Shown here: piece after piece, positions 13,406-63,006 of the stretch | Position numbering within the stretch: the stretch's first letter is position 1 | Layout of the letters: each line of letters opens with the position of its first letter | Source of the DNA: a virus | Lineage: Duplodnaviria > Caudoviricetes | Virus record (IMG/VR): IMGVR_UViG_2636415425_000001 | Span: 1-64,000 of that record | Length of the DNA stretch: 64,000 bases | Strand: one strand, 5' to 3' | The notes under the pieces: model-generated | Told to the model about the DNA's origin: nothing | The model's database searches: none | The model's input: only the letters and a program-made list of their open reading frames with translations | Position numbers and translations under genes: made by a program

Positions 13406-13409
13406 GAAT

Positions 13410-13484: not shown

Positions 13485-13489
13485 GGTTG

Positions 13490-13568: not shown

Positions 13569-13592
13569 AATGGAATGACCATGGAATTGCAA

Positions 13593-13675
13593 TGGTGCGG
13601 ACGGAGGGGATCGAACCCACACTCCGAAGAACCGGTTCCTGAGACCGGCGCGTCTACCACTTCCGCCACGTCCGC
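13593..13675 (-). tRNA. tRNA-Leu(CAG)
   Basis: Loop CTCAGGA; variable arm. Confidence 0.92.
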
Positions 13676-13707
13676 GCTAACTTATCTCGAGCTAGGGGGC
13701 TCTCACG

Positions 13708-14169
13708 ATGCACAAAATTCTAACGGCAGCAGTGGCTTTTACGGCCATCGCCGGGATCTCGCATGCGGAAGATAGGCAGACCCAAATGTTCACGGATCCT
13801 GACATGAACGCATGCTGGTTCGGGGAAGCCCCCGGTTGCGAATCCTGGGCGCGCGCGGAGAGCTATGCCACTATGGCGCTCATTTGCCGACAGATCGGCA
13901 AAGCCGATCGTTGCATGCCAGCCGAACAGGTTTTTGACATTACCTTGGTGGCCGGTGCAGCGATCGCTCTCGCCAAATCGAGCGCAGCAGGCAATCCGCT
14001 CCAGGACGATCGATTTTGGCTTGTGACGACCATATTGCGCGCCGCGAGCCGCGCTCGCGCAGCCCAATCAAATGCCGCTATTGAAGGCTTGCGAGCCGCG
14101 ATTGCGGCCGTACCTGAGAAGCTCCGGTGGGACGGCTTCCGCGAGACGCTGAAGGACAAGGGCTTGTAG
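13708..14169 (+). CDS. Secreted hypothetical protein
   Basis: Signal peptide ending SHA; GGGGG RBS. Confidence 0.7.
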   Translation: MHKILTAAVAFTAIAGISHAEDRQTQMFTDPDMNACWFGEAPGCESWARAESYATMALICRQIGKADRCMPAEQVFDITLVAGAAIALAKSSAAGNPLQDDRFWLVTTILRAASRARAAQSNAAIEGLRAAIAAVPEKLRWDGFRETLKDKGL

Positions 14170-14191
14170 AAGGCCTTGAGGTTTGACCGTC

Positions 14192-14266
14192 TGGTGCTTC
14201 CAGCAGGCCTCGAACCTGCGTTGCCGCCTTACCAAAGCGGTGTCCTCCCGACTGAACGATGGAAGC
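14192..14266 (-). tRNA. tRNA-Thr(GGT)
   Basis: Loop TTGGTAA. Confidence 0.9.
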
Positions 14267-14270
14267 GGAT

Positions 14271-14347
14271 TGGTGCCCGCAGCATGGGATCGAACCTGCG
14301 ACCTCTCGCCTACAATGCGAGCGCTGCTACCGCTGAGCTATACGGGC
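14271..14347 (-). tRNA. tRNA-Thr(TGT)
   Basis: Loop ATTGTAG; bulged T stem. Confidence 0.82.
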
Positions 14348-14447
14348 GGATCTGCTGGCCCCTCACCCGAACTCTGCGCCTGCAAGCGCAATGCGCGGAG
14401 CGAGGGAGCAGGACGGGAACAGTTTGCAGGCCGTGACCGTCAATCCT
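14348..14447 (-). ncRNA. Putative three-way-junction RNA with kissing loops
   Basis: Closing GGATT/GATCC stem; loops CCUGCAAA and UUGCAG are complementary. Confidence 0.5.
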
Positions 14448-14522
14448 TGGTGCCGGCGGCCAGATTTGAACTGGCGACCTTCGCGTTACGAGTGCGCTGC
14501 GCTACCGCTGCGCCACGCCGGC
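14448..14522 (-). tRNA. tRNA-Thr(CGT)
   Basis: Loop CTCGTAA. Confidence 0.9.
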
Positions 14523-49522: not shown

Positions 49523-49978
49523 CTACTCATTGACCGCGGTGTTGTCGATCACCAGGCCGATCTTTGGCGGCTCAGGCGGCTGAAACGCTCCCGACGCCGC
49601 AACTCGTTCTGCCGCGGCCTTGCGCTCGGCCTTCTTGCCGACCTTCTCCGGCGCAGGTGGTGCAGCCGGCACTTCGCCGCCCGCCCTGCCCAGATCCGCG
49701 ATCGCCTGCGCGGCCGCCGACACCCGAGTCATCTCCTCGAGCTTCTTGATGCAGGTGGCGTTGCCCTTCTTCGCCTGCTTGAACAGGAGCCCGACCACCT
49801 CGGCCCGCTTCTTGGCCACGCCGGTCGCGATCTCGTCAGGGAAGGACTTTGCCAACGTCGGCGTCGAGATCCCGAGCACCCGAGCGCATTCGTCCTGGGA
49901 CATTCCGCACGCGATCCACTCTTCGACCTTCGTGCGCTGCGCTTTCGTCGGTTTGAACGCCGGCCGACCTCGGGCCAT
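49523..49978 (-). CDS. terS: Terminase small subunit
   Basis: GRP.FKPT..QR N-terminus, HTH, GKK...PP C-terminus. Confidence 0.85.
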   Translation of the reverse strand: MARGRPAFKPTKAQRTKVEEWIACGMSQDECARVLGISTPTLAKSFPDEIATGVAKKRAEVVGLLFKQAKKGNATCIKKLEEMTRVSAAAQAIADLGRAGGEVPAAPPAPEKVGKKAERKAAAERVAASGAFQPPEPPKIGLVIDNTAVNE

Positions 49979-50036
49979 GCCGAAACTCCAATTTCTTTGC
50001 CGTTCTTGGCGTTCCGGACAAATTTTCCGGCCAGCC

Positions 50037-50111
50037 AAAAAAAATTGCGCGAATGAGCCCCCGTGCGGTCCGTGCCCCCGCCGGTTCCCAGACTTTCCGA
50101 CCCCATACCCC
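50037..50111 (-). other. Candidate cos/packaging site
   Basis: G-rich GGGGTATGGGGTCGGAAAGT...ACCG...CATTCGCGCAATTTTTTTT immediately upstream of terS, resembling HK97-like cos regions. Confidence 0.5.
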
Positions 50112-50356
50112 TTGGCCGAGCATGGCCGGCCGGCTTGCGGCGGGTTGGCGTGTCGTTAGCGCTGGCGTGCGATAGGCCGAGGCGCGTAGCCTGGCCGATT
50201 AGTGTCAACCCTGCAGGCTACATGCTGGCGCCGCTGGCGCCGCGCCGCGCGCGCGGTAGCCTTCCGCGCTTCTGTCTCGAATAGCTGGCGCTAGTGGCGT
50301 TGCGCGGTTGACGTCGCGGCCTTGCATCGATCCGCCGAGGCCGAGGCCAGAAATGC

Positions 50357-50386
50357 AAAACCCGCCGAGGCTTCCCGCGGCGGGTT
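50357..50386 (-). terminator. Terminator-like hairpin downstream of a TTGACA (50441-50446)
   Basis: AACCCGCCG...CGGCGGGTTTT. Confidence 0.5.
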
Positions 50387-50559
50387 GGCTGCAGTGACAC
50401 TGCGCCGAATGCCTGTTCTGAATCATAACTGGAGTCGGACTGTCAAACCCGGTTCCGCTACTCGGCGGTGCATGACGGCGCCGCGCGGCCTCGGCCTCTC
50501 CCTCTTCTGTGATAGCTATTGCTTACGGACTGTTGAAACTCACGGAATAGGGAAACCCA

Positions 50560-50871
50560 ATGACTGCAGCAAAGGCGGATAAGACGGCGCCGAGGCAAGC
50601 CGGCAAAGGCCGCGCCTATGCCTCGGCCGGCGCCGCAATGCGAATCAGCGCGGCCGAATTCATGGCTTGGCAGGAAGAGCTACGCCTATCCAATGGCGCC
50701 GCAGCTGCAGCGCTATTCATCTCGCCCAATACCGTTACAGCGGTGCGCGCGGAAGGCGGTAGCGCTGAACTGGCGCTGAAGTGTCGCGCCATCGCCGCCG
50801 GCCTTTCGCCAGCGCTACCCATGCAAGAGGCCTTTCGCCTCGGCCGAATTGCCGCGATCCTGCAGGAATAG
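50560..50871 (+). CDS. HTH (XRE-like) protein
   Basis: EF.AWQEEL.LS...AAAAL.IS.NTV. Confidence 0.7.
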   Translation: MTAAKADKTAPRQAGKGRAYASAGAAMRISAAEFMAWQEELRLSNGAAAAALFISPNTVTAVRAEGGSAELALKCRAIAAGLSPALPMQEAFRLGRIAAILQE

Positions 50872-50945
50872 AGCCGCAATTCCCTCTAGTGTGAGTCCGG
50901 CCGGGCTAAAGGCTATCTTTTTTCACAGAACAGCGAATTAGGGGA

Positions 50946-50975
50946 TTGACACGCGCCGCGCTTTATAGGCATGTG
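50946..50975 (+). promoter_or_regulatory. Candidate sigma70 promoter for the + strand island
   Basis: Perfect TTGACA just upstream of the first repeat; a similar TTGACA at 57880. Confidence 0.5.
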
Positions 50976-51018
50976 CGGTTTGTGAGGCGCGATTGTGCGC
51001 AAATCTAAAGGCCGCGAA

Positions 51019-51192
51019 ATGAACGCTTTCATTTCCTCTTGCATCGCAAATCCGGCTTTGGCCGGTTTCCTCTTTGCTGCGATCTATTCCCTTTGCTGGG
51101 CTGGCCTAGCTCCCTTCCTGTATGCGCCGGCAAAGCCTCGGCGCCTCATGATCCGGCGCCGCGCGCGCCGTTCCAGTTCGCCGCGCCGCTAA
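51019..51192 (+). CDS. Small membrane protein
   Basis: Follows repeat and RBS; TM plus basic tail. Confidence 0.55.
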   Translation: MNAFISSCIANPALAGFLFAAIYSLCWAGLAPFLYAPAKPRRLMIRRRARRSSSPRR

Positions 51193-51243
51193 CCCGGCAA
51201 GGCTCAACCCGCGCAATCGTGCGCAAATCGAAAAGGTAAGACA

Positions 51244-51429
51244 GTGACAAACTCAACCGTGAAAAGCCTCTTGCACCATGCGGCCGCGGCGATCCGGGTT
51301 GGAAACCTCACACTCGCATTGCGGCTTGTGTCCAATGCCGAATGCCTGGCCTCGGCGGACGAAACCATTTCCGCGGTGCGCCTCGGCCATATTCGCACCG
51401 CGCGGCTTGCGCTCGCAATCGCGAACTGA
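51244..51429 (+). CDS. Hypothetical protein
   Basis: Follows repeat and AAGG RBS. Confidence 0.6.
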   Translation: MTNSTVKSLLHHAAAAIRVGNLTLALRLVSNAECLASADETISAVRLGHIRTARLALAIAN

Positions 51430-51442
51430 GGAGCGCGCGACA

Positions 51443-51655
51443 ATGGCAACCGCCACAATCAAAAAGCGCGATCATGTCACCTATGTTTGCAGCGCTGGTG
51501 TCACCGTTACCGCCATCGTTCGCACCGCGCACCGCGACGGTACCGCTACGGTTGAGGCCCGGCATATGCTGGACTCGGCCGGCAATATCCGCGGTTGCTA
51601 TCTCGGTTACCGCTACCGTTTCGACGCCAGCGATCTAACCCGGGTTGAGGCATAA
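51443..51655 (+). CDS. Hypothetical protein (SH3-like beta pattern)
   Basis: GAGGAG RBS. Confidence 0.65.
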   Translation: MATATIKKRDHVTYVCSAGVTVTAIVRTAHRDGTATVEARHMLDSAGNIRGCYLGYRYRFDASDLTRVEA

Positions 51656-51660
51656 CGCAC

Positions 51661-51900
51661 ATGGCAAAGCCTGATGATTTGACCGTGTACGCCTCGGCCG
51701 GATATGCCGCGCCGGATTCCACAAATCCGCACCTCTGGAGTAGCGCAACACACATTGCCTATTGCCTCGGCCAATGGTTTCACGCAACCGGCCGGCCGGC
51801 GCCGCGCGCGGTCCGCATGTCCCGCGGCCTTTCGATCCGCGCAAACGATATGCTGATACGCTGGGATGCTAAAACCGGCGCATGCGAGCGTATCAACTAA
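51661..51900 (+). CDS. Hypothetical protein
   Basis: GAGG RBS. Confidence 0.65.
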   Translation: MAKPDDLTVYASAGYAAPDSTNPHLWSSATHIAYCLGQWFHATGRPAPRAVRMSRGLSIRANDMLIRWDAKTGACERIN

Positions 51901-51991
51901 CGCGATTTGCAGCCTATGCCGTGCACGTCACGGCATAACCGGCAAACCGCCGAAACCGCGCAATTGTGCGCAAACTGAAAAGGAAACCGCT

Positions 51992-52096
51992 ATGAAGTAT
52001 CGCAAGCATGACTCCGACCGCCGGCCGATGGACAAGCGGACTCGGCGCGCCGCGGTGCGCAACGGAAAGCGCTCGTTTCTGAATTCGTGCCTCTGA
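51992..52096 (+). CDS. 34-aa basic peptide
   Basis: Follows repeat and AAGGA RBS. Confidence 0.55.
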   Translation: MKYRKHDSDRRPMDKRTRRAAVRNGKRSFLNSCL

Positions 52097-52107
52097 GGGA
52101 TACGCCA

Positions 52108-52563
52108 ATGCGATGGACGTTTGACCAATGGTTGACGGCATGCGGCGCGGAAATGTCGCTCCAGTTTAATTGGACGCTGGAGCATTCCGGGTTGCGCGGT
52201 TTCGATTGGAGCGCGGCCTATGGCCGAGGCCTCACGGTCCGCGCGGCTTGTGACGCGGCTTACGATCATGTGCAGGAAACTGCACTAGACGGCGCCGTCT
52301 ATTTCAATTGCTGCACTGGCAACACGGCGCCGGATTGGTCCGCCTTCCGTTCGCTCGAAATTGGCGGATGCAAAATGGTGAGCAATTCCGCTGGCGAAAG
52401 CTACGTGCACGGGAATCAGGCGCCGGACGATTCCGCTTTTTGGACTGTCTACGCTCGCGAGCATGACGGTTGCGCGCTGGCGATTACCGATTGCGGAATC
52501 CTCACGGAAACCCACGCGATAGCGGAAACGCTTTCCCGGCTTTCCGGCCTTCCCCTGATTTGA
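52108..52563 (+). CDS. Hypothetical protein
   Basis: GAGGG RBS; FWTVYAR...AITDC motif. Confidence 0.65.
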   Translation: MRWTFDQWLTACGAEMSLQFNWTLEHSGLRGFDWSAAYGRGLTVRAACDAAYDHVQETALDGAVYFNCCTGNTAPDWSAFRSLEIGGCKMVSNSAGESYVHGNQAPDDSAFWTVYAREHDGCALAITDCGILTETHAIAETLSRLSGLPLI

Positions 52564-52655
52564 CGTTGCGACACTGCGCAGCATGTCTGCGCAGCACGGA
52601 ACGCCAAAGCGGACCAACGCGCGATTGTGCGCAAACTTGAAAAGGACAACGGCCA

Positions 52656-52898
52656 ATGCCTTGGAAACTGGAACTGCAGGAAACCCGGCGCGGTTGCCAA
52701 ATGCTGGAAACGACACCGCGCTATGACGTTCTCTTGAACGGCGCGCGAACCGGCCAGCTGTATTTCAACACGCGCGGTTATGTCGGATATCTGCCGACGC
52801 CGGCCGGCGGAAAGATCGATATCGGAGAGAAGGGAATCACGGCGTTTCGTCGCGAGGTTTCCGCGCTCAACCGGGAAGCTAGGAACCTGGCCGGCTAA
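52656..52898 (+). CDS. Hypothetical protein
   Basis: Follows repeat and RBS. Confidence 0.65.
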   Translation: MPWKLELQETRRGCQMLETTPRYDVLLNGARTGQLYFNTRGYVGYLPTPAGGKIDIGEKGITAFRREVSALNREARNLAG

Positions 52899-52936
52899 CC
52901 CGCGCGATTGTGCGCAAATTGAAAGGACAGACTACA

Positions 52937-53128
52937 ATGGCACGATATGGCGGCGATCCGCGATGGATCATTACCAAATATCCGACCAATGACCGCAACG
53001 GCCGTTTCATCCCGGTAGGAACGCGCGCGTTCTACTATCCCGCTTCCAAACGCATGTTGACCGGCGCCGAGGCGGAACAGGCAAGCCGTGACTTTGAGGC
53101 CGCGCGCTTTGACGAAAGCATGGGGTAA
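52937..53128 (+). CDS. Hypothetical protein
   Basis: Follows repeat and RBS; DPRWI..KY motif. Confidence 0.7.
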   Translation: MARYGGDPRWIITKYPTNDRNGRFIPVGTRAFYYPASKRMLTGAEAEQASRDFEAARFDESMG

Positions 53129-53133
53129 CGGAA

Positions 53134-53433
53134 ATGGATTTTGCAGCATTCCAAGCCGCCGCGGCCGAGCTGGATAACCGGATGACAACGGCCGGCGCGC
53201 GCCTCGGCGCCGTGACAGAAAGCCTTGCGGCCGAGATGGGGATTCCGGCGCGCGGTCCGATGGGATTGACGCCCGATCGAATTAAGTTCGATCCGCGATA
53301 CCGGCTTGCGAAGGCCGCGGCCGATATCGCCTTTTCGGAACTGCGCGCATTCAATGCCCGGTATGCCCGGCGGTTCAAGAAAGAGATACGCGCCGCGATT
53401 GACGCGCGGCGCCGTGCCAAGGCAACGGCCTGA
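53134..53433 (+). CDS. Hypothetical protein (GPMGLTPD motif)
   Basis: Adjacent ORF. Confidence 0.7.
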   Translation: MDFAAFQAAAAELDNRMTTAGARLGAVTESLAAEMGIPARGPMGLTPDRIKFDPRYRLAKAAADIAFSELRAFNARYARRFKKEIRAAIDARRRAKATA

Positions 53434-53497
53434 CCTGGCCTCGGCCTTCCCTCAATTCTCGGCGCGATTGTGCGCAAATCAGAAAGGACAATGGACC

Positions 53498-54589
53498 ATG
53501 CAACAGGTTGATTTGATCGCGGCAAAGGCTGCAAAGGCAACGGAACGGCGCGCGCTCGCAATCGTCGCGTATGACAACGCAACAGCGAATCCCGATTGCG
53601 CGAACTGGCGCGCGGTTGCCGATTTGCTTAGGCTCGCATTGCCGGCGCCGAAAGCCGGATCCGCCGCGGCCAAGATCCCGGACGGCGCGGCCGATCATTG
53701 GGCGGACTATGTGATTCCGGCAAGCGCGACCAAACGTCTAGGCAAATCGCCTATTATCGTTGTCACGTTCTCTTGCGGCGCCGTGGTACGCGCGCCGGCA
53801 GTTTCCCTTCCCGGCAAGCCGGTCAATATCGGCCGCGGCTTGCGTGTTGCCTTTGCCTTCTACCGGGCACGGATCGCACGGGAATTCGGCAAGGCCTCGG
53901 CCATTGGTTCCGATTGTGTCGCGGTTCCGGCCATCGTTTCCGTTGCCTGTGACGTTGCCGGCGCCGAGTATTCCGCCGAGGAATGCAACGCGCGAACGGC
54001 CGAATTCCGCCGCGGCCGTTTCGATCATATCGCGCTTTCGGCCGAGGCCTCGGCCTTGCCGGAAACCGCCGAGGCCGGCGAGTTGACGCGCGCCGACTTC
54101 TACCGCGGCCATTACCTCATTGCCTCGGCCGAGGCCGAGATTTTGGCCGGCGCCAATGAGGATCACGCGGCCGAGCTCGGCGCGCAGATTGCCGACTATC
54201 GGTCGCGTCTCGGCGGTATGGCCTGGCTGGAGATTGAAGCGCGGCGCCGCGCCATCATTCGCGCGGCCGAGGCCGAGGCGAAAGCCGCGGCAAAGGCCGA
54301 GGCCGAGGCCGGCCGGCGCGCCGAGCAAGAGGCCGAGGCCCGCGCAGCTGCAGCCGAGGCCGAGGCGTCGCGGTTGCGGCTTGTCGCGGACAATTCCGCC
54401 AGCGTCGAAACCGCGTCGGCTTCCCTCCCGGATACGGCCGATTCCCTCCCGGTTGCGCCCGCGCCCAAATCGATCGCGCCTATCCCGGTTGCGCCTTCCC
54501 GCGCCGCGCGCTTCCTGGCCTCGTCATCGCTCGGCGCGCCTCGGCCTTCCCTCCCGGTTGCGCCTTTCTGCGCGATCCGCGCCAGCTAG
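53498..54589 (+). CDS. Hypothetical Ala-rich protein
   Basis: Follows repeat and RBS; 363 aa. Confidence 0.7.
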   Translation: MQQVDLIAAKAAKATERRALAIVAYDNATANPDCANWRAVADLLRLALPAPKAGSAAAKIPDGAADHWADYVIPASATKRLGKSPIIVVTFSCGAVVRAPAVSLPGKPVNIGRGLRVAFAFYRARIAREFGKASAIGSDCVAVPAIVSVACDVAGAEYSAEECNARTAEFRRGRFDHIALSAEASALPETAEAGELTRADFYRGHYLIASAEAEILAGANEDHAAELGAQIADYRSRLGGMAWLEIEARRRAIIRAAEAEAKAAAKAEAEAGRRAEQEAEARAAAAEAEASRLRLVADNSASVETASASLPDTADSLPVAPAPKSIAPIPVAPSRAARFLASSSLGAPRPSLPVAPFCAIRAS

Positions 54590-54604
54590 TCGGAGTCGCC
54601 AGCA

Positions 54605-54802
54605 ATGCGAGCCTATGGATTCGATATCTTGCCCGATGGCGCAAAGTTTCGCCTGATTGATCGCTGCGAATTCAACAATTGGGGCGAGCTATCGCCGCGG
54701 TTTGATACTCCAGCCGAGGCCGAGGAATACGCGCGCCGCTGCGACGAATTCAAGCGCGGCAAGCGTTCAAGCGTCGAATTGCGCGCTTGGGAACTGCACT
54801 AG
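54605..54802 (+). CDS. Hypothetical protein
   Basis: GGAG RBS; FDT..EA..YA motif. Confidence 0.65.
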   Translation: MRAYGFDILPDGAKFRLIDRCEFNNWGELSPRFDTPAEAEEYARRCDEFKRGKRSSVELRAWELH

Positions 54803-54872
54803 GCCGCGGCGCGCCTCGGCCTCACGGAATGCAACACGCGCGATTGTGCGCAAACGGAAAGGAAAACAGACC

Positions 54873-55286
54873 ATGCGGAAGCCGAATCCCAACAAAGAGA
54901 AGGCCGCGCAGCTGGCGCGCCAGATTGCCAACATGACGGAAGAGCAGAAGGCGATTTGGCTGCAGCGCGCGCCGATCCTCACCGCGGACGCGCGGCCGAT
55001 ATCCGGGAAAAATCACATGCTGGCGGCGATGCAATGCGAAGGCGCAACCATGCTCGGCGGCTTCAATCAATGGCTTTCCGCCGGTCGCGTGGTGCGCAAA
55101 GGCGAGTCCGCAATCTACATTTTCGCGCCGTCCGGCCGGCGCGCGACGGCCGAGACCTCGGCGGCGCCGAGCGCGGAAGGCGCCGCGGCCGAGGCCGTGG
55201 CGGAGTCCGTGCGGTTTATCCTGGTCCCGGTTTTCGACGTCTCGCAAACCGAGGAAAAGCCGGCCGAGCAAGCCGCCGCGGCCTAG
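54873..55286 (+). CDS. ArdC-like N-terminal ssDNA-binding domain protein (anti-restriction family)
   Basis: S.KN.ML...Q...GFNQW...GR.VRKGE.AI.I.AP...VFDVSQTE. Confidence 0.8.
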   Translation: MRKPNPNKEKAAQLARQIANMTEEQKAIWLQRAPILTADARPISGKNHMLAAMQCEGATMLGGFNQWLSAGRVVRKGESAIYIFAPSGRRATAETSAAPSAEGAAAEAVAESVRFILVPVFDVSQTEEKPAEQAAAA

Positions 55287-55371
55287 TCCCGGGTACGGCC
55301 GATTTCCCCAATCCCTCGGCTACGGCCGATTTTCTCGGCGCAATTGTGCGCAAACCAAAGGAGCTAACGAC

Positions 55372-55641
55372 ATGCCGAAATTGATTCTCGATTGCCACCC
55401 CGCAACCGTCCAGGGCGATTGCATCTTGACGTCCATCATGCAAGCCGGCCCCGTGGCGCGCCTCGTTGTCGATATCGCGCGCGCCGCGGACGCCGAAAGG
55501 GAATTCGCGGATTACTGCAAGAGCATTGAGGCAACCGGCAAGCCGGCGAGCGTTTCAATGCGGATCGCCCGCGCCGATCGCTCCCCGCCTGGCTTCAAGA
55601 AACTGAAGGGCGCGGCCGGCTTTCACAGTGTCAATTGCTGA
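55372..55641 (+). CDS. Hypothetical protein
   Basis: Follows repeats and AAGGAG RBS. Confidence 0.7.
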   Translation: MPKLILDCHPATVQGDCILTSIMQAGPVARLVVDIARAADAEREFADYCKSIEATGKPASVSMRIARADRSPPGFKKLKGAAGFHSVNC

Positions 55642-55651
55642 GGGCGCCGAA

Positions 55652-55846
55652 ATGACTTTCCGCGCCTATGACTTTCCTGCGGCCGTCATCCGGATTTATG
55701 CGGATGGCAGCTGCAGGGAGTTTCCGAAATGGTGCCTAATGATAAGCGTCGAACGCTCGCGCGCCTATGTCGCCAGTGCACTGCGCGAGTTGCGCAGCTA
55801 TCGGCGGCGCCTCGCCGCTGAACCGCTTCGCCCCGCCGCCGCCTGA
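55652..55846 (+). CDS. Hypothetical protein
   Basis: GAGGG RBS. Confidence 0.55.
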   Translation: MTFRAYDFPAAVIRIYADGSCREFPKWCLMISVERSRAYVASALRELRSYRRRLAAEPLRPAAA

Positions 55847-55874
55847 TTTCCCATCACAGAACAAAGGAACCGTT

Positions 55875-56282
55875 ATGCATCTCACCTTGCCCCGCTCGCC
55901 GCTCGCCGCGCTCGTTAACGAGGCCTCAAAGTATCGATGGCGCATCCGCTACGCGCTGCAGCGCTACGGCGTAGCCTGGCGCTACGCTCGCCAGCGCTCA
56001 ACCCGCGATGACGGATTGACGCTGCTTTTCGACGCCGAGCATATCGCCGGGATTTACGGCCTCGCCTGCTTGTCCGAGGAATCCGTTTTGGATCGCGCGC
56101 GCGACCTATACGGCGACATTCCCGGTCTTGAGCGATGGGCGGCGGACGCTTGCGCGCGCGTCAACTCGAAACATGGCGGCGGCGATGGCGAAATGATCGG
56201 CGCGGCGGAAGATTGGGCGCTTGAACTGATGGCCGAATACGCCGCGCACGATGGCGTGACGCTGGCAGAACTCGCCGAGTAA
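55875..56282 (+). CDS. Hypothetical protein
   Basis: AAGGA RBS. Confidence 0.65.
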   Translation: MHLTLPRSPLAALVNEASKYRWRIRYALQRYGVAWRYARQRSTRDDGLTLLFDAEHIAGIYGLACLSEESVLDRARDLYGDIPGLERWAADACARVNSKHGGGDGEMIGAAEDWALELMAEYAAHDGVTLAELAE

Positions 56283-56419
56283 CCCCCGGCGCCGGCTGAT
56301 TCCCCAGCCGGCGCGACACCTCCCGACTACGGCCGATTTTGCGCGGTGGATGACGCGCGGACCTGGCCGCAGCCGCTCAACCATCCGCGCAATAGTGCGC
56401 AAAGCGAAAGGACGCTCCC

Positions 56420-56653
56420 ATGAGAACGATTAAGCCCGCGACACGCGACAATGCAATCCAACTCAACAACGCAATAGCGCTGATGAAGAAGGCCCGCGGC
56501 TGGTTGCGCGGCGCCGATAGCCCGAAAGCGTTGGAAGCGCTGCAAGCGGCGCTGAAGAGCGCCGAGGGCGCAAAGCGACACATGCAGCACAGACTCAACC
56601 GGGCCAATCCGCCTGGCCTTCGCGCGCCCGGCGTCGATCACATGCCGGGATAG
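56420..56653 (+). CDS. Hypothetical helical protein (ALKSAEGAKRH motif)
   Basis: Follows repeat and RBS. Confidence 0.7.
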   Translation: MRTIKPATRDNAIQLNNAIALMKKARGWLRGADSPKALEALQAALKSAEGAKRHMQHRLNRANPPGLRAPGVDHMPG

Positions 56654-56718
56654 CCTCCGGGCTACGGCTGATTTTCCACCCCTCGCATACGGCTAATTTT
56701 CACAAGGAGATCACCATC

Positions 56719-57624
56719 ATGAGCACAATCACGATTTGGACTTGCACCACGGAAGGCGACAACTGCGGGACCGAAACCACGGTGCACGCAACCCAAGGCG
56801 AGGCCGTGGACTACGTGCGCGCAGCGCTCCGCGATATTCTCAAAAACCGCAGACCCGAGCGCCTGGCAGCGATCGCGGCGGCGACCGCCGAGAACATCAA
56901 AGAACTCTGGGAAGATGCGGTTGACGGACCTTGCATCATCGAAGAGCAGTCCGTGACGCTTCCGCCCTTTGCGGTCGCGATCTACGAAACCCGCTACGGC
57001 GACGAAACGCGCCTCTACGCCAACACGGACGACGCGCAGACCTGGCGCCGCGAGATCGCCGCCGAGAACTGGGCGGCGCGGATGGACGAGGAACGGCCGG
57101 CCGATGCCGACGAGACCGCAGACGCCTATTTCCATCACGTCGGCGAGGCGCGCGGCGACTTCTTCCGGGTCGAAGAGCTGGAGATGATCGGCGGCACAGT
57201 CCCGGTTGCGCCTGCCCAGGACTGGCGCCAGATCGCCCGCGACTTGGCCGGCGCGCTCGATGCATGCACCCATCAGATTGGCCAGATGCGCGGCATGTTC
57301 GACGACGAGGACGGCACGATTGCGGAAGCAGTTTCCGACGCTGACGCCGCCTCCGAAGCCTACCGCCGAGCCGCCGCCGGCCTCCCGGCTGCGCCCGCGC
57401 TGCAGCCCATCGGTCAAGATGACCGCGCCTGCTCGGAAGGCTGGGGCCTCTTCGAGAACAGCGACACAGGCCGGCTTGAGATTCAGGCCGACGCCGAGTC
57501 CTCAATCTTTGTGCGTGACGGCGTGAGCCACGACGACGAGGCCGAGGCATTCGTAAAAGCAAAGGCCGCCGAGGGCAGCGAGTACCACGCCGCGGCGCTC
57601 GCCCGTGTCGGTACGGCCCAATAG
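56719..57624 (+). CDS. Acidic hypothetical protein (possible DNA mimic)
   Basis: AAGGAG RBS; D/E-rich, 301 aa. Confidence 0.75.
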   Translation: MSTITIWTCTTEGDNCGTETTVHATQGEAVDYVRAALRDILKNRRPERLAAIAAATAENIKELWEDAVDGPCIIEEQSVTLPPFAVAIYETRYGDETRLYANTDDAQTWRREIAAENWAARMDEERPADADETADAYFHHVGEARGDFFRVEELEMIGGTVPVAPAQDWRQIARDLAGALDACTHQIGQMRGMFDDEDGTIAEAVSDADAASEAYRRAAAGLPAAPALQPIGQDDRACSEGWGLFENSDTGRLEIQADAESSIFVRDGVSHDDEAEAFVKAKAAEGSEYHAAALARVGTAQ

Positions 57625-57683
57625 GCCCGGCTACGATCGATTTTCCACCCCCGAGCTACGGCCGATTTTGAGGAGCAGCACAC

Positions 57684-57875
57684 ATGCACTTGAGCGAGAC
57701 GACAAACGGAAAGCTGGCGGAGGTCTCAACCCAGATTGAGGAGCTAATCCGCTGGGCTGAAGCGGACGCCGAGCACGCCCGCGAAAACGACGCGCGTCAA
57801 ACCGCGCGAGATGATCGGAGCCGCGCCGCGAAGCTCCGCAAGGCGCTCGCCCTGGTGCGAGCGTGCGAGCGATAG
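57684..57875 (+). CDS. Hypothetical protein
   Basis: GAGGAG RBS. Confidence 0.65.
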   Translation: MHLSETTNGKLAEVSTQIEELIRWAEADAEHARENDARQTARDDRSRAAKLRKALALVRACER

Positions 57876-57952
57876 CCACTTGACACCGCCGGCAATCTGA
57901 CTCATTGAACAACCCCCGCGCGATTGTGCGCAAATTGAAAGGATGAAGACAC

Positions 57953-60316
57953 ATGCAGCATTCCGCCACCTATTCGCCCGATGATAACAAGCTGCGCCTT
58001 TACCCGGCGCACCGGCTCGACGCCGAGGAGCACGCGCGCGTAAAGGCGCACGGCTTCAAATGGGCGCCGCGTCAAGAATTGTTCGTTGCGCCGATGTGGA
58101 CGCCAGAACGCGAAGACCTGCTGATTGAGATGTGCGGCGAGATCGGCGACGAGGACAAGAGCCTGGTAGAGCGCGCCGAGGATCGCGCCGACCGTTTCGA
58201 CGAATACAGCGACAAGCGGCTGTCGGAAGCTAACCGCGCGCGCGAGGCCGTGGACCAGATCGCGGAGCGGTTCGCGATGGGGCAGCCGATTTTGGTCGGC
58301 CATCATTCCGAGAAGAGCGCACGCAAGGACAAGGAGCGGATGGACTCCGGCATGCGCAAGGCAATCAAGCTGTGGGACACTTCCAAATATTGGACGGCCC
58401 GCGCCGAGGGCGCCATCGCCCACGCGAAATACAAGGAACTGCCGGCGGTGCGTCATCGCCGCATCAAGGGCATTGAGTCCGATAAGCGGAAGCTGGAGCG
58501 CCAGCAGGCCGAGACCGAAAGGCAGCTGAAAGCCTGGCAGATCGTCGCCGGCATCACGGACCCGGAGAAGCAGCGCGCGGCCGGTTTGGCCGTGGCCAAC
58601 ACCGGCGGTTATTGGTCGATGTCGTTTCCGCTGGCCGACTATCCGCGCGACCCGCCGGCCTCGCAGTATGAGGGACCGATGGGCCTTTGGTCGGCGATTG
58701 AAGGGAACGTCATCACCGCCGCCCAGGCCGCCGCTATCGCAATTCCTGGCCTGGAGCGCGGCGGGCCTCGGCGGGAGCGCTGGATTGCGCACTATGACAA
58801 CCGGCTGGCCTATGAACGGGCGATGTTGGCCGAGCAGATCGGCGCGGAGGCCACTGCCAACCCGCTTGCAGACCGTTTCGCCTTCGCCGTTGGTGGTCAG
58901 GTGCAAACCCGCCGCAGCGACGATTGGCTTACGATTGTGAAGGTCAGCAAGGGCGCTAACGGCTCGGTTTCCAGCATTCAAACCGCAGCCCCGTCAGGAT
59001 CGCGCGGGCGCGGCGTTTACTGGAAGGTCGAAAGCGTCCGCGACTATCGCGCGCCGACCGCCGAGAACGTCGCCGCGGCGAAGGCCGCCACGAAGCTCCC
59101 GCCGATTTGCAACTATCCCGGCGAGGGATTCCGCGAAATGACTGAAGCCGAATGGAAGGCGCGCCGGCAGTTCTCGGATTTCTCCTATATCGGCACGGTG
59201 AAGGCGACCGAGACCCAAGGCGCGCACCGCGTCCGCCAGATGCCGACGCCCGGCGAGTTCTGGAAGGCGCAAAAGGTTTTCATCACGGATGCAAAGCGCG
59301 TCGATCCGCCCAAGATCGCGCCGGCACCAGAGCCGACCGAACCGGCCGAATTTGTGGCTGAGTATGTCGCGCCGCCCGCGGTCGATCTTGACGCCATGCT
59401 GGCCACGGTCGGCGAAATCGTGGGCGCGCCGGTCGAGGCCGCGGCCCAGGACGAGCCCGAGGCCGCGCCGGCGCTGGCCCCGGATGCGCCCGCGGAAGAA
59501 CCGCGACGCCTCGGCGACGCCAAGGCGGAGGCGCAGCGCATCGGCGCGGAGATCATCACCGGACTCGGCCAATTCCGTGTTGGCCTCGGCCAGCACGTTA
59601 CCGACTGGTGCGACGACGAGGCGACCGCCTGGCGGCAGTTCTGCGGACTGGCTGGCGTGCCGTTTGAGGCCGAGGCCGTGCCGGCTGATCTGCGGCCGCG
59701 CGTTCTCGCCCCGGTCCCGGATACGGCCGATTTGCCGGCGCCGACCGCGGCGGACAGTTTCGAGGCCATGCGGGCGATGTTGAAGGGCGGCGGCGTGCAA
59801 GTCGTCGTCGCGCCTCAACTCTTCCCGACGTCGGACGAACTCGCCGCGGACGTTGCGGAGGCCGCGGACATCCGGCCCGGGCAACGCATCTTGGAGCCGA
59901 GCGCCGGAACCGGCGCCCTGATCGAGGCTGCGCGCAACTGCGCCAATGATCTGCAGGTGGTGGCGGTCGAGATCAACACGAAGCTGTGCCATGCATTGGC
60001 GGACCGCTTCACCGGCATGCAAATGACCGTCATCAATGCGGACTTTCTCGACATGGCCGGCGTCACGGACAAGTTTGATCGGATCATCATGAATCCGCCT
60101 TTCGAGCGCGGCGCCGATATCAAGCATATCGAGAACGCGCGGCGGTTTCTGAAGCCTAACGGCCGCCTGGTCGCCATCTGTGCCGACGGCCCGCGCCAGC
60201 GCGCGAAGCTCGAACCGATCGCGGTGGAGTATCGCGCCCTGCCCGCGGGATCCTTCAAGGCTGCTGGCACCATGGTCAACACGGCGTTGGTCGTGATCGA
60301 CGGGCCGCCGGGATAG
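57953..60316 (+). CDS. DUF3560-type domain fused to an N6-adenine DNA methyltransferase
   Basis: ATYSPDDNKLRLY, GQPILVGHHSE; C-terminal LFPT, LEPSAGTG, AVEI, MNPPF. Confidence 0.9.
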   Translation: MQHSATYSPDDNKLRLYPAHRLDAEEHARVKAHGFKWAPRQELFVAPMWTPEREDLLIEMCGEIGDEDKSLVERAEDRADRFDEYSDKRLSEANRAREAVDQIAERFAMGQPILVGHHSEKSARKDKERMDSGMRKAIKLWDTSKYWTARAEGAIAHAKYKELPAVRHRRIKGIESDKRKLERQQAETERQLKAWQIVAGITDPEKQRAAGLAVANTGGYWSMSFPLADYPRDPPASQYEGPMGLWSAIEGNVITAAQAAAIAIPGLERGGPRRERWIAHYDNRLAYERAMLAEQIGAEATANPLADRFAFAVGGQVQTRRSDDWLTIVKVSKGANGSVSSIQTAAPSGSRGRGVYWKVESVRDYRAPTAENVAAAKAATKLPPICNYPGEGFREMTEAEWKARRQFSDFSYIGTVKATETQGAHRVRQMPTPGEFWKAQKVFITDAKRVDPPKIAPAPEPTEPAEFVAEYVAPPAVDLDAMLATVGEIVGAPVEAAAQDEPEAAPALAPDAPAEEPRRLGDAKAEAQRIGAEIITGLGQFRVGLGQHVTDWCDDEATAWRQFCGLAGVPFEAEAVPADLRPRVLAPVPDTADLPAPTAADSFEAMRAMLKGGGVQVVVAPQLFPTSDELAADVAEAADIRPGQRILEPSAGTGALIEAARNCANDLQVVAVEINTKLCHALADRFTGMQMTVINADFLDMAGVTDKFDRIIMNPPFERGADIKHIENARRFLKPNGRLVAICADGPRQRAKLEPIAVEYRALPAGSFKAAGTMVNTALVVIDGPPG

Positions 60317-60391
60317 TCCCGGCTGCGCCCTCCCGCTTACGACCGATTTCCAAACCCTCCCGGCTACGATCGATTTTGAAAGGAACACAGC

Positions 60392-60886
60392 ATGCCTGAC
60401 CGTTTCGAATACACTTCGGAAGAGCGGATGTTGCTCGCCCGCCTGGCCCAAGGCCGGCAAACCGACCGGGATTGCATCCCTGAGCGCGTGCTCGTCAATC
60501 GAGGCATGGCGCGCCGGGTCGATCCCGGAGAGATCGAGATCACACCAGCCGGTCGCGACGAGCTCGCACGGATCGCCTCGAGCGCTGCTTTCTCCGGTCC
60601 AATCGACGGCGCACGCGCCGGCATCATCGAGGCGCTCGGCGGCGCGTTCGCAACGCCTCCGGCTTCGCCACCGCCTGGCCGGCAACTGACCGACGATGAG
60701 AAGGCCTTCATCGCTCGCATGGCGCCGCACGTCATGGCCGGCAAGACCCTCGAGGAAGCCGGGGCGGCCGTCCTCCAGGATGATGAACGCTTGTGGCTGA
60801 CCGCCATGGAGGATTCGGACGTCGGCCGCGCGATCCGCGGCGAGCTCGCCAAGGCGACATACGTCGCAGCGCGCGCGAAGCCATAG
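60392..60886 (+). CDS. Hypothetical protein
   Basis: AAGGA RBS after repeats. Confidence 0.7.
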   Translation: MPDRFEYTSEERMLLARLAQGRQTDRDCIPERVLVNRGMARRVDPGEIEITPAGRDELARIASSAAFSGPIDGARAGIIEALGGAFATPPASPPPGRQLTDDEKAFIARMAPHVMAGKTLEEAGAAVLQDDERLWLTAMEDSDVGRAIRGELAKATYVAARAKP

Positions 60887-60959
60887 GCGCGGCTGCCCCG
60901 ACTACGACTGATTTCCCATCACCCCCTCGGCTACGGCCGATTTGAAAGGAGAATTACCC

Positions 60960-61331
60960 ATGCTCGTCACCGTCAAGGCCGGCGCCAAGGTGGAAGGCCA
61001 CACCTTCAGCCAGGACTCGAACCAAAACTTTGGGCGGGAGAAAGCCGAAGGCCTGATCAAAGATGGCCGCGCAAGGCCCGCGGCGTTCGACGCCGAGGGA
61101 ATCTGCCGGATCAACACGCGGTTCGAAGCATGGCTCAACGAACATGGCGCGCTCGCGATCGGGTCTTGCGGCGATGCCTTTCTGCATCTCTCGCCGGAAT
61201 TTCCGTTGGCTTACTTGCCCGAGGCACTGCAAGCCTATCAAGCGGGGCACCACCACGGCATGAGTTACGGCCGCAGCAAACTGCAGAACGAGCTTCTGAA
61301 CTTGCTCGGGGCCGAGCCATGCAAGATATGA
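60960..61331 (+). CDS. Hypothetical protein
   Basis: AAGGAG RBS after repeats. Confidence 0.7.
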   Translation: MLVTVKAGAKVEGHTFSQDSNQNFGREKAEGLIKDGRARPAAFDAEGICRINTRFEAWLNEHGALAIGSCGDAFLHLSPEFPLAYLPEALQAYQAGHHHGMSYGRSKLQNELLNLLGAEPCKI

Positions 61332-61606
61332 CGGGGGAAGAGACAGTCACCGCGGCCGGCTACAGGGTTGCCACTCGCGCCGAGTTCGATGCCGCCACCG
61401 ACGTGCCCGCGGGCGTGCGCCTGGTGGCCGATCGCCTCTTCAAACGCTGGGGCGGCGACTTCGTTGTTTACGATCCGGCCGGCGGTGATGACGGCTGGCT
61501 GCTGATCGACGACGACCGCGAGCAGATCATAGGCGAGACCGTGGAACACCTCGGACGGCTCAAACCTGAGCCGACTGCGCCGCCGGCACAAGGCTCGCTG
61601 TTTTGA
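61328..61606 (+). CDS. Hypothetical protein
   Basis: ATGA coupling; ends QGSLF (clamp-binding-like). Confidence 0.6.
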   Translation: MTGEETVTAAGYRVATRAEFDAATDVPAGVRLVADRLFKRWGGDFVVYDPAGGDDGWLLIDDDREQIIGETVEHLGRLKPEPTAPPAQGSLF

Positions 61607-61642
61607 CACCCGGATACGATCGATTTTGAAAGGAGACCGAGC

Positions 61643-61816
61643 ATGCCGCGGAACTGGATCGTGCGCGAGCGCCACCCATTCGATGATGGATACTGGGCGC
61701 GCTATGACGGCAAACGCCGCCCCAACAAGTCATTGACCGAGAAACGTGAGGGCTGGGAGGCTTGCGACCGCGAGATTGCCGAAGAAGCCCACGACGCTGA
61801 GGAGGCTGTGCTATGA
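61643..61816 (+). CDS. 57-aa protein, weakly Rmf-like
   Basis: AAGGAG RBS; FDDGYWA..DG...EGWE. Confidence 0.55.
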   Translation: MPRNWIVRERHPFDDGYWARYDGKRRPNKSLTEKREGWEACDREIAEEAHDAEEAVL

Positions 61817-62181
61817 GGCAGGTCCGCCGCGTCCCCGCCGATTGGCAGCACCCTCGCAATTCCTGGGGTCGATATACGCCGCTCCTTGAGTCCGCCCCGG
61901 ATGCACCCGCGCCCGATCTTTCCCGCTGCATGCCGGCATGGCCGGAGGCGGAGCGCACCCACTGGCAGTTGTACGAGACCACCAGCGCCGGCACGCCGGT
62001 TTCGCCGCCCTGCCCGTCGCCCGAGGCCTTGGCCAAATGGCTTGCCGACCACCATGTGGAGGCCGCACCAGGTTTCACCGGAACGGAGGCGCAATGGCTC
62101 GGCGCCATCAAGCGCGGCGGCGTCATTCCGCCGGTGATGACCGTCGGCAAGCAGCAGGTCTCGCCGCTGGATTACACCTGA
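61813..62181 (+). CDS. Hypothetical protein
   Basis: RQVRRVPADWQHP...WQLYETTSAGTPVSP motif; ATGA coupling. Confidence 0.75.
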   Translation: MRQVRRVPADWQHPRNSWGRYTPLLESAPDAPAPDLSRCMPAWPEAERTHWQLYETTSAGTPVSPPCPSPEALAKWLADHHVEAAPGFTGTEAQWLGAIKRGGVIPPVMTVGKQQVSPLDYT

Positions 62182-62275
62182 TCGGCCGGGACTCCCGGCT
62201 ACGATCGATTTTGTGCTACCCCCTCGGCTACGGCCGATTCCGGGCGATTGTGCCCAACCGGAAAGGAACTCTCAG

Positions 62276-62599
62276 ATGTCGCCCCCCAGATTTGTTCACC
62301 GCAAGATCTCGGCCGAGGACTTCAAGGCCGAGTTGGCGAAGCAGGGCATGTCGGTGCCGGCGTTCGCCCGTGTCTGGTGCCAGAACCTTTCGACCGTCAC
62401 GAAATGGGCCAACGGCGGGAACGATATCCCGACCTGGGTGCCGATCGCGCTGACCATGATGACGCTGCCAAACGCTCACGGGACCGCCCGTATGGCGGCG
62501 GCGGCGATGATCGAAGAAGATCGGCTGCATCCCGAGCTCGGAAAATTCCCGTACCAGAAGCTTCGGCAGATGCCGGCGGACGACGAGATCGAGGAATAG
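62276..62599 (+). CDS. HTH (XRE/Cro-like) protein
   Basis: DFKAEL...GMS..AFAR......TV.KW.NG...IP.WV. Confidence 0.75.
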   Translation: MSPPRFVHRKISAEDFKAELAKQGMSVPAFARVWCQNLSTVTKWANGGNDIPTWVPIALTMMTLPNAHGTARMAAAAMIEEDRLHPELGKFPYQKLRQMPADDEIEE

Positions 62600-62605
62600 T
62601 CCCGG

Positions 62606-62821
62606 CTACGATCGATTTTGCGTGCCCCGGCTGCGCCTTTTCTTCGCCGCGTGCCGTTTCTTGGGCGGCGCTCGCTTCGCCGCTGGCGCCGGCGGCGCGT
62701 CCTTCGCTGCGGCCGCGGCGTCGAGGGCATCGAGCTCCCGCTTCTGCGCCTGCATCCGTTCCCACCTGGCTTCGCGTTGAGCGCGCAGCGCGTCGGCGCG
62801 CGGTGACGGCTCCCTGCTCAT
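62606..62821 (-). CDS. Small basic hypothetical protein
   Basis: ATGA coupling. Confidence 0.5.
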   Translation of the reverse strand: MSREPSPRADALRAQREARWERMQAQKRELDALDAAAAAKDAPPAPAAKRAPPKKRHAAKKRRSRGTQNRS

Positions 62822-63006
62822 GACGGCGACCTTTGCCAGAACCAGCGGCGCCGGCGCAACAGCACGATTGCCTCTTGCGATCGGCCAGCAACGCTGATCG
62901 GTCGCCAACCGTCCGCAATTCGGCTGTTTAACTCTCGCCGCAACCATCCCTGCGACTGCGTGGAGTAAATGCTTTGGAGATCGTATTCGTAGCGATAGAG
63001 CAGCAT
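62818..63006 (-). CDS. Hypothetical protein
   Basis: AGGAG RBS; LN....DGW motif. Confidence 0.55.
   Translation of the reverse strand: MLLYRYEYDLQSIYSTQSQGWLRRELNSRIADGWRPISVAGRSQEAIVLLRRRRWFWQRSPS

Follow-up and report, generated by a model that had tools for sequence, protein, structure and literature searches.

Why should a phage place one and the same short hairpin immediately ahead of the ribosome site of gene after gene? The question is raised by a 64,000-nucleotide (nt) stretch of a tailed-phage record (IMG/VR record IMGVR_UViG_2636415425_000001, positions 1 to 64,000; hereafter the window), which is part of a roughly 100-kb Bradyrhizobium prophage and in which a 14-nt inverted repeat recurs eleven times ahead of the Shine-Dalgarno sequences of a block of early genes. 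The answer that we favour, tentatively and as something slightly less than an even chance, is that the repeat is an operator in the messenger RNA (mRNA) which adjoins the ribosome site and would be bound by a regulator of the phage, in a manner akin to that of the proteins Aca1 and Aca2, and that the same repeat doubles as a joint for recombination.

A search with the pattern GSGCRATNGTGCSC returned 11 matches in the window, all of them on the + strand and at the positions where the units of Table 1 begin, against 0.14 expected from shuffled sequence; none of 100 shuffles held 11 or more matches, the largest count in any of them being 2. These are exactly the sites at which a reading made from the letters of the window alone (the sequence-only reading) had placed eleven same-strand copies before a Shine-Dalgarno sequence, and the observation of eleven phased hairpin copies is thus confirmed. 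A covariance model trained on 103 copies found precisely the same 11 sites (33.8-47.6 bits), the next-best match in the window scoring 13 bits (E-value 0.39) on the opposite strand, so that by pattern and by model the copies are limited to positions 50987-62255. In the whole 8.27-Mb genome there are 12 matches to GSGCRATNGTGCSC followed by AA, of which 11 are the window sites; the twelfth is taken as a chance match because it lies inside a 519-codon open frame and has no Shine-Dalgarno sequence behind it. An Rfam scan of positions 50000-63000 (E-values up to 5) gave two unrelated weak matches and none at any hairpin, in agreement with the sequence-only reading, which did not recognise the element as a described motif.

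The anatomy of the repeat is that of a leader. Downstream of every copy in the window come AA, a spacer of 2-5 nt and the Shine-Dalgarno sequence (G)AAAGG(A), and in all 11 cases a start codon (ATG or GTG) stands 18-23 nt past the end of the hairpin (Table 1). The loop is ATTG in eight copies, ATCG in one and ATAG in one, with ATTG once more in the copy which has the stem GGGCG/TGCCC, and stem position 5 is G in seven copies and A in four, opposite an invariant T. When 41 copies from the four closest phages (the window and three relatives) are aligned on the motif, conservation spans positions -5 to +26, Shine-Dalgarno sequence included, and the consensus reads as two A/C-rich positions, CC, GCGCRAYNGTGCGC, AA, four variable positions and AAAGG. 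All 41 copies agree in the loop bases A6 and G9 and in the AA tail, while their flanks and neighbouring genes diverge; upstream of the motif the same alignment has no position above 0.4 bit and no -35-like box. Across ten phages, 98 of 101 copies precede an open reading frame (ORF) of at least 25 codons, and 97 of those 98 do so at 18-24 nt from its start. The other genes of the + strand block lack the hairpin.

The block starts just past the terminase genes and ends at 62599, the likely genes beyond it lying on the minus strand; for its left half, G+C content at third codon positions (GC3) gave too weak a signal for every gene to be called. The large terminase has a counterpart with 96% identity in a Bradyrhizobium sp. 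genome, and it also matches IMG/VR proviruses of 102-109 kb. The hairpin was found in nine further proviruses, in a metagenome phage (G211) and in metagenome contigs. Each of the nine proviruses carries 7-12 copies on a single strand, in one 10-12-kb early block per record, and a 17.5-kb fragment (G203) has none. G211, a 104.6-kb IMG/VR phage with 55% G+C, has about ten hairpin leaders with freer stems and loops, and has in common with the block of the window three proteins: an ArdC-like protein, a fusion of DUF3560 and a methyltransferase, and a protein of 107 amino acids (aa). Contigs from soil metagenomes include 91 stretches with the exact unit and six short contigs with 2-6 model matches each. 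The hairpin module is older and more widespread than the Bradyrhizobium clade. Many single metagenome matches were not counted as members, as they shared one identical 24-mer, matched the model only locally and were put down to coding sequence or chance. Among 200 bacterial genomes of the same family no hairpin cluster was found, 72 of them having 1-4 scattered matches on both strands, and thus, among the genomes searched, the hairpin is not a host regulon. A blastn search of positions 50500-58000 against the GenBank phage collection gave no match.

It is these divergent relatives, and not the window, which establish that the repeat is a paired structure. The sequence-only reading had seen covariation among the eleven copies themselves, and this did not hold: the window alone does not prove a structure since what it offers is a double change at 62242 and a transition between G and A. 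Across the Bradyrhizobium clade there is hardly any variation in the stem, position 5 being G or A facing the fixed T, and the last copy of every relative has the stem GGGCR/TGCCC at an orthologous site, which is a single old double change that was inherited and not a series of repeated events. Stem covariation is seen only in the divergent relatives. In G211 the stems include TCGCA-ATTC-TGCGA, TGCGA-ATTT-TCGCA and GGCA-ATCA-TGCC, the loop is of 3 nt ahead of the DUF3560 orthologue and of 5 nt in the GGGCG/TGCCC copy, and a metagenome contig has TTGCA-ATCG-TGCAA; G206 has GCGCG-ATCG-CGCGT, and G204 has a terminal G.T. Over 113 copies from 11 phages 99.6% of the cells pair, with double changes at two of the five pairs, and the covariation score of 0.165, compared with 0.098 in shuffles, was reached by none of 500 shuffles. 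When the count is limited to 50 diverse copies (those of the window, G206, G211 and the six contigs, chosen to retain low-scoring copies), 98.4% of the cells pair and double changes occur at pairs 1 and 2; pair 1 is GC in 46, UA in two, GU in one and something else in one, and pair 2 is CG in 45, GC in three and UA in one.

As the alignments used for these counts had been fitted to the structure, a structure-blind test was added, in which the divergent set was searched with an anchor consisting only of AA, a spacer, RARGG and a start codon. Of the 18 sites found in this way, the AA is directly preceded by a hairpin with all five pairs intact in 13 and with four pairs in four, compared with 1 of 7 in controls; the remaining site, with two pairs, falls within a gene, and breaks in pairing are confined to the terminal pairs. 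The closing pair is G.U in 66 of 106 cases, and such pairs work on the sense strand only. That the stems of divergent phages change and yet stay paired (TCGCA/TGCGA, TGCGA/TCGCA, TTGCA/TGCAA and GGGCG/TGCCC) argues that the sense-strand hairpin is real, and the compensated stems and the structure-blind search together bear out the earlier claim of a single-stranded structure as opposed to a purely double-stranded DNA site.

A site read exclusively on DNA is a rival explanation. Here the repeat would be an operator or stoperator for an XRE-like helix-turn-helix (HTH) protein or a prophage repressor, blocking initiation at two putative promoters (P1 and P2, Table 1) as well as elongation between cassettes, so that the block is silent in the lysogen. 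GCGC-N6-GCGC is the geometry of an operator for an HTH dimer, the phage is temperate, two conserved proteins with HTH folds flank the block, copies 1 and 10 lie directly behind promoter-like boxes, and the core GC/CG pairs never vary. However, the stem variants mostly change both arms and keep the pairing, which a protein reading bases in the duplex would not need; the G or A of position 5 faces a fixed T, so that the half-sites are asymmetric; a roadblock requires no tight phasing with the ribosome site; and loops of 3-5 nt, as in G211, would alter the spacing of the half-sites. A single orientation and an intergenic position are also features of the stoperators of phage L5 (PMC9283540), and even so we regard an exclusively DNA-borne site as decidedly unlikely.

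Of 105 copies, 21 have a TTGAC box in the preceding 60 nt, and 18 of these belong to two orthologous positions, namely 41-43 nt ahead of the first copy in all ten Bradyrhizobium-type phages and 36-39 nt ahead of the copy which fronts the DUF3560-methyltransferase gene in eight of the ten. At P1 and P2, which are predicted promoters, the hairpin repeat lies 9-14 nt past the -10-like hexamer and would therefore begin about 2-7 nt after the predicted start of transcription. A promoter scan in the style of Escherichia coli called no promoter at any hairpin, P1 and P2 included. Since the TTGAC box is near few copies, most of them should be internal to transcripts and cannot be promoter-linked operators; nor is the hairpin an ordinary promoter in its own right. 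The 52 nt preceding the copies fold somewhat better than control windows (-16.7 versus -14.8 kcal/mol; Mann-Whitney p 3e-4). In the phage G202 the -10 region of P1 (3395-3425) contains a 12-nt inverted repeat, GCGCATGTGCGC, the equivalent of which in the window is at 50966-50978; its core, CATGTGCG, is kept in the other phages and resembles the hairpin motif, and an inverted repeat of the GCGCATGTGCGC type in P1 could be a second operator, on DNA.

There is also the possibility that no factor is involved at all, and that the hairpin shields the A-rich ribosome site from the G+C-rich sequence upstream and protects 5' ends, whether primary or processed, so that any cassette placed behind it is translated reliably. 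The constant spacing between hairpin and ribosome site would suit this explanation, as would the closeness of the hairpin to the predicted 5' end at P1 and P2, the persistence of hairpin, AA and spacing in G211 where loops and stems drift, and the at least 24 unrelated gene families which are fronted. It is less easily reconciled with the invariance of the unpaired A6, G9 and AA in the four closest phages, with the weakness of the hairpin, which is not favoured in 3 of 11 contexts, or with the other genes of the block, which manage without it, and a leader of this factor-free kind seems to us unlikely.

A second repeat, CGGCTACGRCCGATT(TT), was found in the same block and resembles a mini-terminator (Table 1). 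It has 17 matches at up to 2 mismatches, compared with 0.47 expected, and 16 of these are on the + strand; the copies are mostly just past stop codons, several of them as tandem pairs, and two (54429 and 59718) are inside long ORFs. A terminator scan, again in the style of E. coli, called 23 terminator-like sites in place of the 15.4 expected, one of which is a copy of this repeat (55316-55329). The cassettes thus begin in a standard way, with the hairpin leader, and those in the right half of the block also finish in a standard way, with CGGCTACGRCCGATT(TT).

With terminator-like repeats between the genes, antitermination has to be considered, in which a boxB-like hairpin on the nascent RNA is bound by an arginine-rich peptide of 34 aa encoded behind hairpin 3 (Table 1) and polymerase reads through the mini-terminators. 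In phage lambda the site boxB is a 5-bp G+C-rich RNA hairpin near the starts of the early transcripts, and N, the partner of boxB, is a small arginine-rich protein encoded early in the operon. The stem studied here is likewise G+C-rich and of 5 bp, the micro-protein is encoded early in the block of every relative, there are 16 terminator-like repeats between genes, and copies 1 and 10 are promoter-proximal. Unlike the lambda nut sites, however, the hairpins have no boxA (a pattern built on the boxA consensus gave 8 matches versus 13.5 expected, none recurring beside the hairpins), the loop differs and does not belong to the GNRA-like class of 5 nt, each block has eleven sites where an operon would have one, and the peptide is unrelated to N and far shorter, without detectable homology in Pfam or to solved structures. 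Antitermination would also leave the phasing with the ribosome site unexplained, and we think it very doubtful.

The hairpin might instead be recognised as a promoter by an RNA polymerase or sigma factor peculiar to the phage, which would start transcription downstream of the hairpin but ahead of the ribosome site. Terminator-like hairpins do lie upstream of several copies, and a short, strongly conserved motif on one strand directly before genes is what is seen in phages with their own polymerase. This explanation is scarcely credible here, as no upstream box is conserved, compensated stems are not to be expected of a duplex promoter, and the leader would begin just about 6-10 nt ahead of the Shine-Dalgarno sequence; a search for the T7-type RNA polymerase family (PF00940) found no match in the genome, which counts for little because the control genomes were also silent. 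Sites for sigma-54, CtrA, DnaA, IHF or CsrA and elements of the ROSE type were dropped after inspection against consensus sequences.

The genes behind the hairpins are a changing set. Gene content of the block differs strongly among relatives, and the first genes behind hairpins fall into at least 24 families, three of which are present in nine to ten of the ten Bradyrhizobium-type phages. A Pfam and PHROGs scan of 21 proteins of the block left 14 without any family, other matches being mostly to families of unknown function, and cargo that would fit an anti-defence role is represented by the ArdC-N-like anti-restriction domain and the DUF3560-methyltransferase fusion. The fusion (57953-60316) aligns over 37-62% of its length in seven of ten relatives, its middle part being replaceable. 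The block opens with a gene for a protein of 57 aa (51019-51192), which combines a hydrophobic stretch with a C-terminal tail very rich in arginine and has ten Lys or Arg residues and no Asp or Glu.

Comparison of these phages with one another often shows breakpoints of homology at the motif. The ends of pairwise homology blocks fall at -10 to +35 of the motif start in 180 of 1210 cases (15%), compared with 4.5% on a uniform expectation, with peaks at -5 to +4 and at +25 to +29; 85% of the ends fall away from the motif. The window copy at 52902 aligns to two copies in G204 which flank a 1140-bp cassette missing from the window. With one sequence before every cassette, relatives have a short stretch of homology at which cassettes are gained, lost or exchanged, and the suggestion in the sequence-only reading of a recombination handle analogous to the promoter early stem-loops (PeSLs) of T4-type phages is upheld as far as behaviour is concerned. 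A dedicated recombination site for one-gene cassettes, comparable with the attC of integrons or the target of a site-specific recombinase, would also account for the enrichment of block ends at the motif, for the G204 cassette lying exactly between two copies and for the at least 24 cargo families with three universal ones. It is nevertheless highly improbable in our view, given that the great majority of block ends lie elsewhere, that family scans detected no recombinase among the block proteins, and that neither a length of 14 nt nor phasing with the ribosome site is required for recombination; any repeat would yield such joints through ordinary homologous recombination, as the PeSL reports argue (PMC2839356, PMC4122927). 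The joint-like behaviour fits every explanation considered here, and we take it to be a by-product, as has been argued for the PeSLs (PMC2839356, PMC4122927). The sequence-only reading has stood as to the hairpin, the lack of an Rfam family and the PeSL-like behaviour, and not as to covariation from the window alone; its RNA-binding regulator stays a proposal. Missing from it were the UACG mini-terminator repeat, the two TTGAC boxes, the 34-aa arginine-rich gene and the precedent of Aca1 and Aca2 (PMC13551039).

That a hairpin of the sense strand is phased with the ribosome site and is mostly internal to transcripts points to action on mRNA, and the invariance of the unpaired A6, G9 and AA points to its recognition by something. 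We propose that a portable leader of about 30 nt (the 5-bp G+C-rich hairpin, AA, 2-5 nt and AAAGG) fronts the first gene of each early cassette, and that a regulator encoded by the phage would bind the hairpin in mRNA and so set translation, the likeliest course being a first burst followed by repression. In this way a single protein might govern a changing set of about ten cassettes of the anti-defence type. The likeliest binder would be one of the two conserved XRE-like HTH proteins which flank the block, and the alternative the 34-aa arginine-rich peptide; an HTH binder would act as do Aca1 and Aca2, reading the inverted repeat in the DNA of the promoters P1 and P2 and the hairpin in the transcripts. 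What the data show are the repeat, its constant distance from the ribosome site, its conservation, its pairing and the breakpoints; that it works as RNA, that a protein binds it, which protein this would be and in which direction translation would change are inferred. The block fits the Aca scheme on a larger scale, and it is on these grounds that an Aca-like mRNA operator is adopted, at the strength given at the outset.

Both HTH proteins, of 103 and 107 aa, have homologues in all ten relatives examined, and the gene of the latter is the last of the + strand block, which is the usual place of aca genes. Structure models built from 9-10 sequences have a pLDDT (predicted local distance difference test) of 74 for the 103-aa protein and 69 for the 107-aa protein. 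The best folds in the PDB for the former are HTH domains of XRE, HigA and C-proteins (E-values 0.04-0.5, probability up to 1.0), ZF40 Aca2 being among its matches with an E-value of 0.65, and those for the latter are HigA2, C-proteins, the lambda repressor and SinR (E-values 0.1-0.6). In Pfam the 103-aa protein is below threshold (HTH_17, E-value 0.05) and the 107-aa protein has no match; profiles run against all PDB sequences gave no match for the 107-aa protein and only E-values of at least 0.2 for the 103-aa protein, none of them named Aca.

In each of the 11 phages, and in four metagenome contigs with several copies, the gene of the 34-aa peptide follows a hairpin, and this hairpin is often the most degenerate copy. 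Between its closest orthologues the codon differences are 132 synonymous and 126 non-synonymous, which we read as purifying selection. The peptide has five cluster representatives among 1.84 billion proteins and no match in Pfam or the PDB; by its composition it resembles, to our eye, arginine-rich RNA-binding motifs. The peptide ends in FLNSCL, and a variable ORF of 158 aa (52087-52563) begins in a different frame within its gene, the two overlapping by 10 nt. If the peptide were the binder it could act as one half of a pair of the Tat/TAR or N/boxB type. More generally, the system may be an RNA-level counterpart of stoperators, in which one small factor, be it this peptide or an HTH protein binding both DNA and RNA, would read every module and the mini-terminators would standardise the 3' ends; we consider this broader version unlikely.

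The Aca-like interpretation should be considered with caution, as several findings weigh against it. The HTH fold matches are weak (E-values 0.04-0.6), and by sequence (Pfam, and profiles against the PDB) neither HTH protein belongs to a known Aca family. The two central stem pairs are invariant in both the 113-copy and the 50-copy sets, so that it is the outer pairs, and a small number of independent events, that carry the covariation; the nine GC cells at pair 2 of the larger set are essentially one inherited change, the alignments behind the pairing counts were fitted to the structure, and the structure-blind control set is small. The minimum-energy fold contains the hairpin in 8 of 11 contexts, in one of them shifted by one base, and the folding z-scores of the 74-nt contexts of the 11 copies are not significant (-1.2 to +1.3). 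The loops of G211 vary (AACG, ATCA, ATTC, ATTT, TAC and CTTAA), which counts against a loop-specific binder and suits a role without any factor. Finally, a 14-bp inverted repeat of the form GCGC-N6-GCGC is also a plausible DNA operator for an HTH dimer.

The element may be compared with several described systems. Aca2, an HTH protein, binds both promoter DNA and hairpins of the 5' untranslated region (5'-UTR), blocking the ribosome site, and Aca1 binds a single stem-loop; RNA motifs are also predicted between genes inside anti-defence operons, and one Aca protein can serve several neighbouring operons (PMC13551039). The present element resembles the Aca1 and Aca2 motifs in being a small 5'-UTR hairpin, about 6-8 nt before the Shine-Dalgarno sequence of anti-defence-type phage genes, with an HTH gene in the same block (XRE-like folds, weak E-values) and an inverted repeat near a predicted promoter. 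It is unlike them in that eleven copies of one module occupy an 11-kb block, in place of one to three, and in that the hairpin sequence is different and has no counterpart in Rfam, neither HTH protein can be recognised as a member of the Aca1 or Aca2 families, and no known anti-CRISPR gene was identified in general family scans, a dedicated anti-CRISPR search not having been made.

The start-associated sequence (SAS) of Cluster K mycobacteriophages is the ribosome site itself, with a 13-bp consensus, GGGATAGGAGCCC, 3-7 bp from the start codon, and for the extended start-associated sequence (ESAS) repeats the authors found no support for pairing (PMC3203893); the function of the SAS was still unverified in 2025 (PMC12699233). 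The hairpin repeat shares with SAS and ESAS a number of 11-19 copies, a short asymmetric sequence in one orientation a few bases from start codons, a place in the non-structural half of a temperate phage, varied gene families and absence from the host genome (PMC3203893). In contrast to the SAS it lies 5' of the ribosome site and its pairing is supported, and host phylum and sequence are unrelated.

A PeSL combines a strong promoter of the sigma-70 type with a terminating stem-loop, and as here such short repeats lie among small non-essential genes in a hyperplastic region, where they bound insertions, deletions and replacements (PMC2839356, PMC4122927). The cassettes of the window also have standard ends, with the leader in front and the mini-terminator behind. 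However, a -35 box is lacking from about 80% of the hairpin copies, neither a conserved upstream box nor a promoter call by the scan accompanies them, and the hairpin is followed by AA and not by a T-run, the terminator-like repeat being a separate element.

The stoperators of Cluster A mycobacteriophages are duplex DNA sites without symmetry, spread over the genome and each bound by a repressor monomer; like the hairpins, they are numerous 13-14-bp sites in the short intergenic spaces of a temperate phage, with an orientation which follows transcription (PMC9283540). The hairpin, by contrast, is an inverted repeat whose changes are compensated; it is in phase with ribosome sites and, in nine relatives searched over their whole records, is found in a single block. 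It would appear, therefore, that the element sits in kind between the Aca RNA motifs, the start-associated sequences of Cluster K and the PeSL cassettes. No description of it was found in literature searches that were aimed at analogues, and the motif lists of PMC13551039 may already include the hairpin or the HTH proteins.

If the hairpin is an RNA operator, it is regulation of the Aca2 type scaled up, with a standard module before about ten exchangeable genes, which would explain how newly acquired anti-defence genes come to be timed correctly from the outset. In the broader version, that of an RNA-level counterpart of stoperators, any gene recombined behind the module would automatically join a timed, post-transcriptional anti-defence regulon. 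How often HTH proteins act on mRNA is a question only now opening, and a 14-nt RNA with three small candidate proteins is a compact and testable case. The covariance model may also serve as a marker for early cassette regions, and hence for candidate anti-defence genes, in Bradyrhizobium-type prophages and soil metagenomes. Should no factor be needed, the element would be a natural insulator of ribosome sites in a high-G+C host.

Table 1. Coordinates in the window of the hairpin units and of the other features discussed; each unit begins with the hairpin and ends with the start codon
Feature	Coordinates	Strand	Remarks
Large terminase gene	47641-49323	minus	family scan
Small-terminase-like gene	49523-50038		upstream of large terminase; family scan
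103-aa XRE-like HTH protein	50560..50871	+	candidate regulator; just upstream of P1
Putative promoter P1	50946..50974	+	TTGACA, 17 nt, GCATGT; ends 12 nt before hairpin 1
Hairpin unit 1	50987..51021	+	GCGCG-ATTG-TGCGC, AA, Shine-Dalgarno; ATG 51019, 57-aa protein
Hairpin unit 2	51211..51246	+	GCGCA-ATCG-TGCGC; GTG 51244, 61 aa
Hairpin unit 3	51958..51994	+	GCGCA-ATTG-TGCGC; ATG 51992, 34-aa Arg-rich gene
34-aa Arg-rich micro-protein gene	51992..52096	+	candidate trans factor; behind hairpin unit 3
Hairpin unit 4	52619..52658	+	ATG 52656, 80 aa
Hairpin unit 5	52902..52939	+	ATG 52937, 63 aa
Hairpin unit 6	53462..53500	+	ATG 53498, 363 aa, no family
Second repeat, CGGCTACGRCCGATT(TT)	54429..62617	+	16 copies; 5-bp stem, UACG loop, T-run; mini-terminator-like
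Hairpin unit 7	54838..54875	+	ATG 54873, 137 aa, ArdC N-terminal-like anti-restriction domain (54873-55286)
Hairpin unit 8	55338..55374	+	ATG 55372, 89 aa; two mini-terminator repeats immediately upstream
Hairpin unit 9	56387..56422	+	GCGCA-ATAG-TGCGC; ATG 56420, 77 aa
Putative promoter P2	57880..57908	+	TTGACA, 17 nt, CATTGA; ends 9 nt before hairpin 10
Hairpin unit 10	57918..57955	+	ATG 57953, 787 aa, DUF3560 and methyltransferase (57953-60316)
Hairpin unit 11	62242..62278	+	compensated GGGCG-ATTG-TGCCC; ATG 62276, 107-aa HTH-like protein
107-aa XRE-like HTH protein	62276..62599	+	candidate regulator; final + strand block gene

Two minor observations may be added. The identical 24-mer mentioned above, which consists of the consensus hairpin followed by AACCCAAAGG, occurs in at least six unrelated contigs with unconserved flanks and is probably conserved coding sequence. 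Elsewhere in the window, 31 tRNA genes covering most amino acids lie on the minus strand at 3277-14522, an unusually large number for a temperate phage of about 100 kb.

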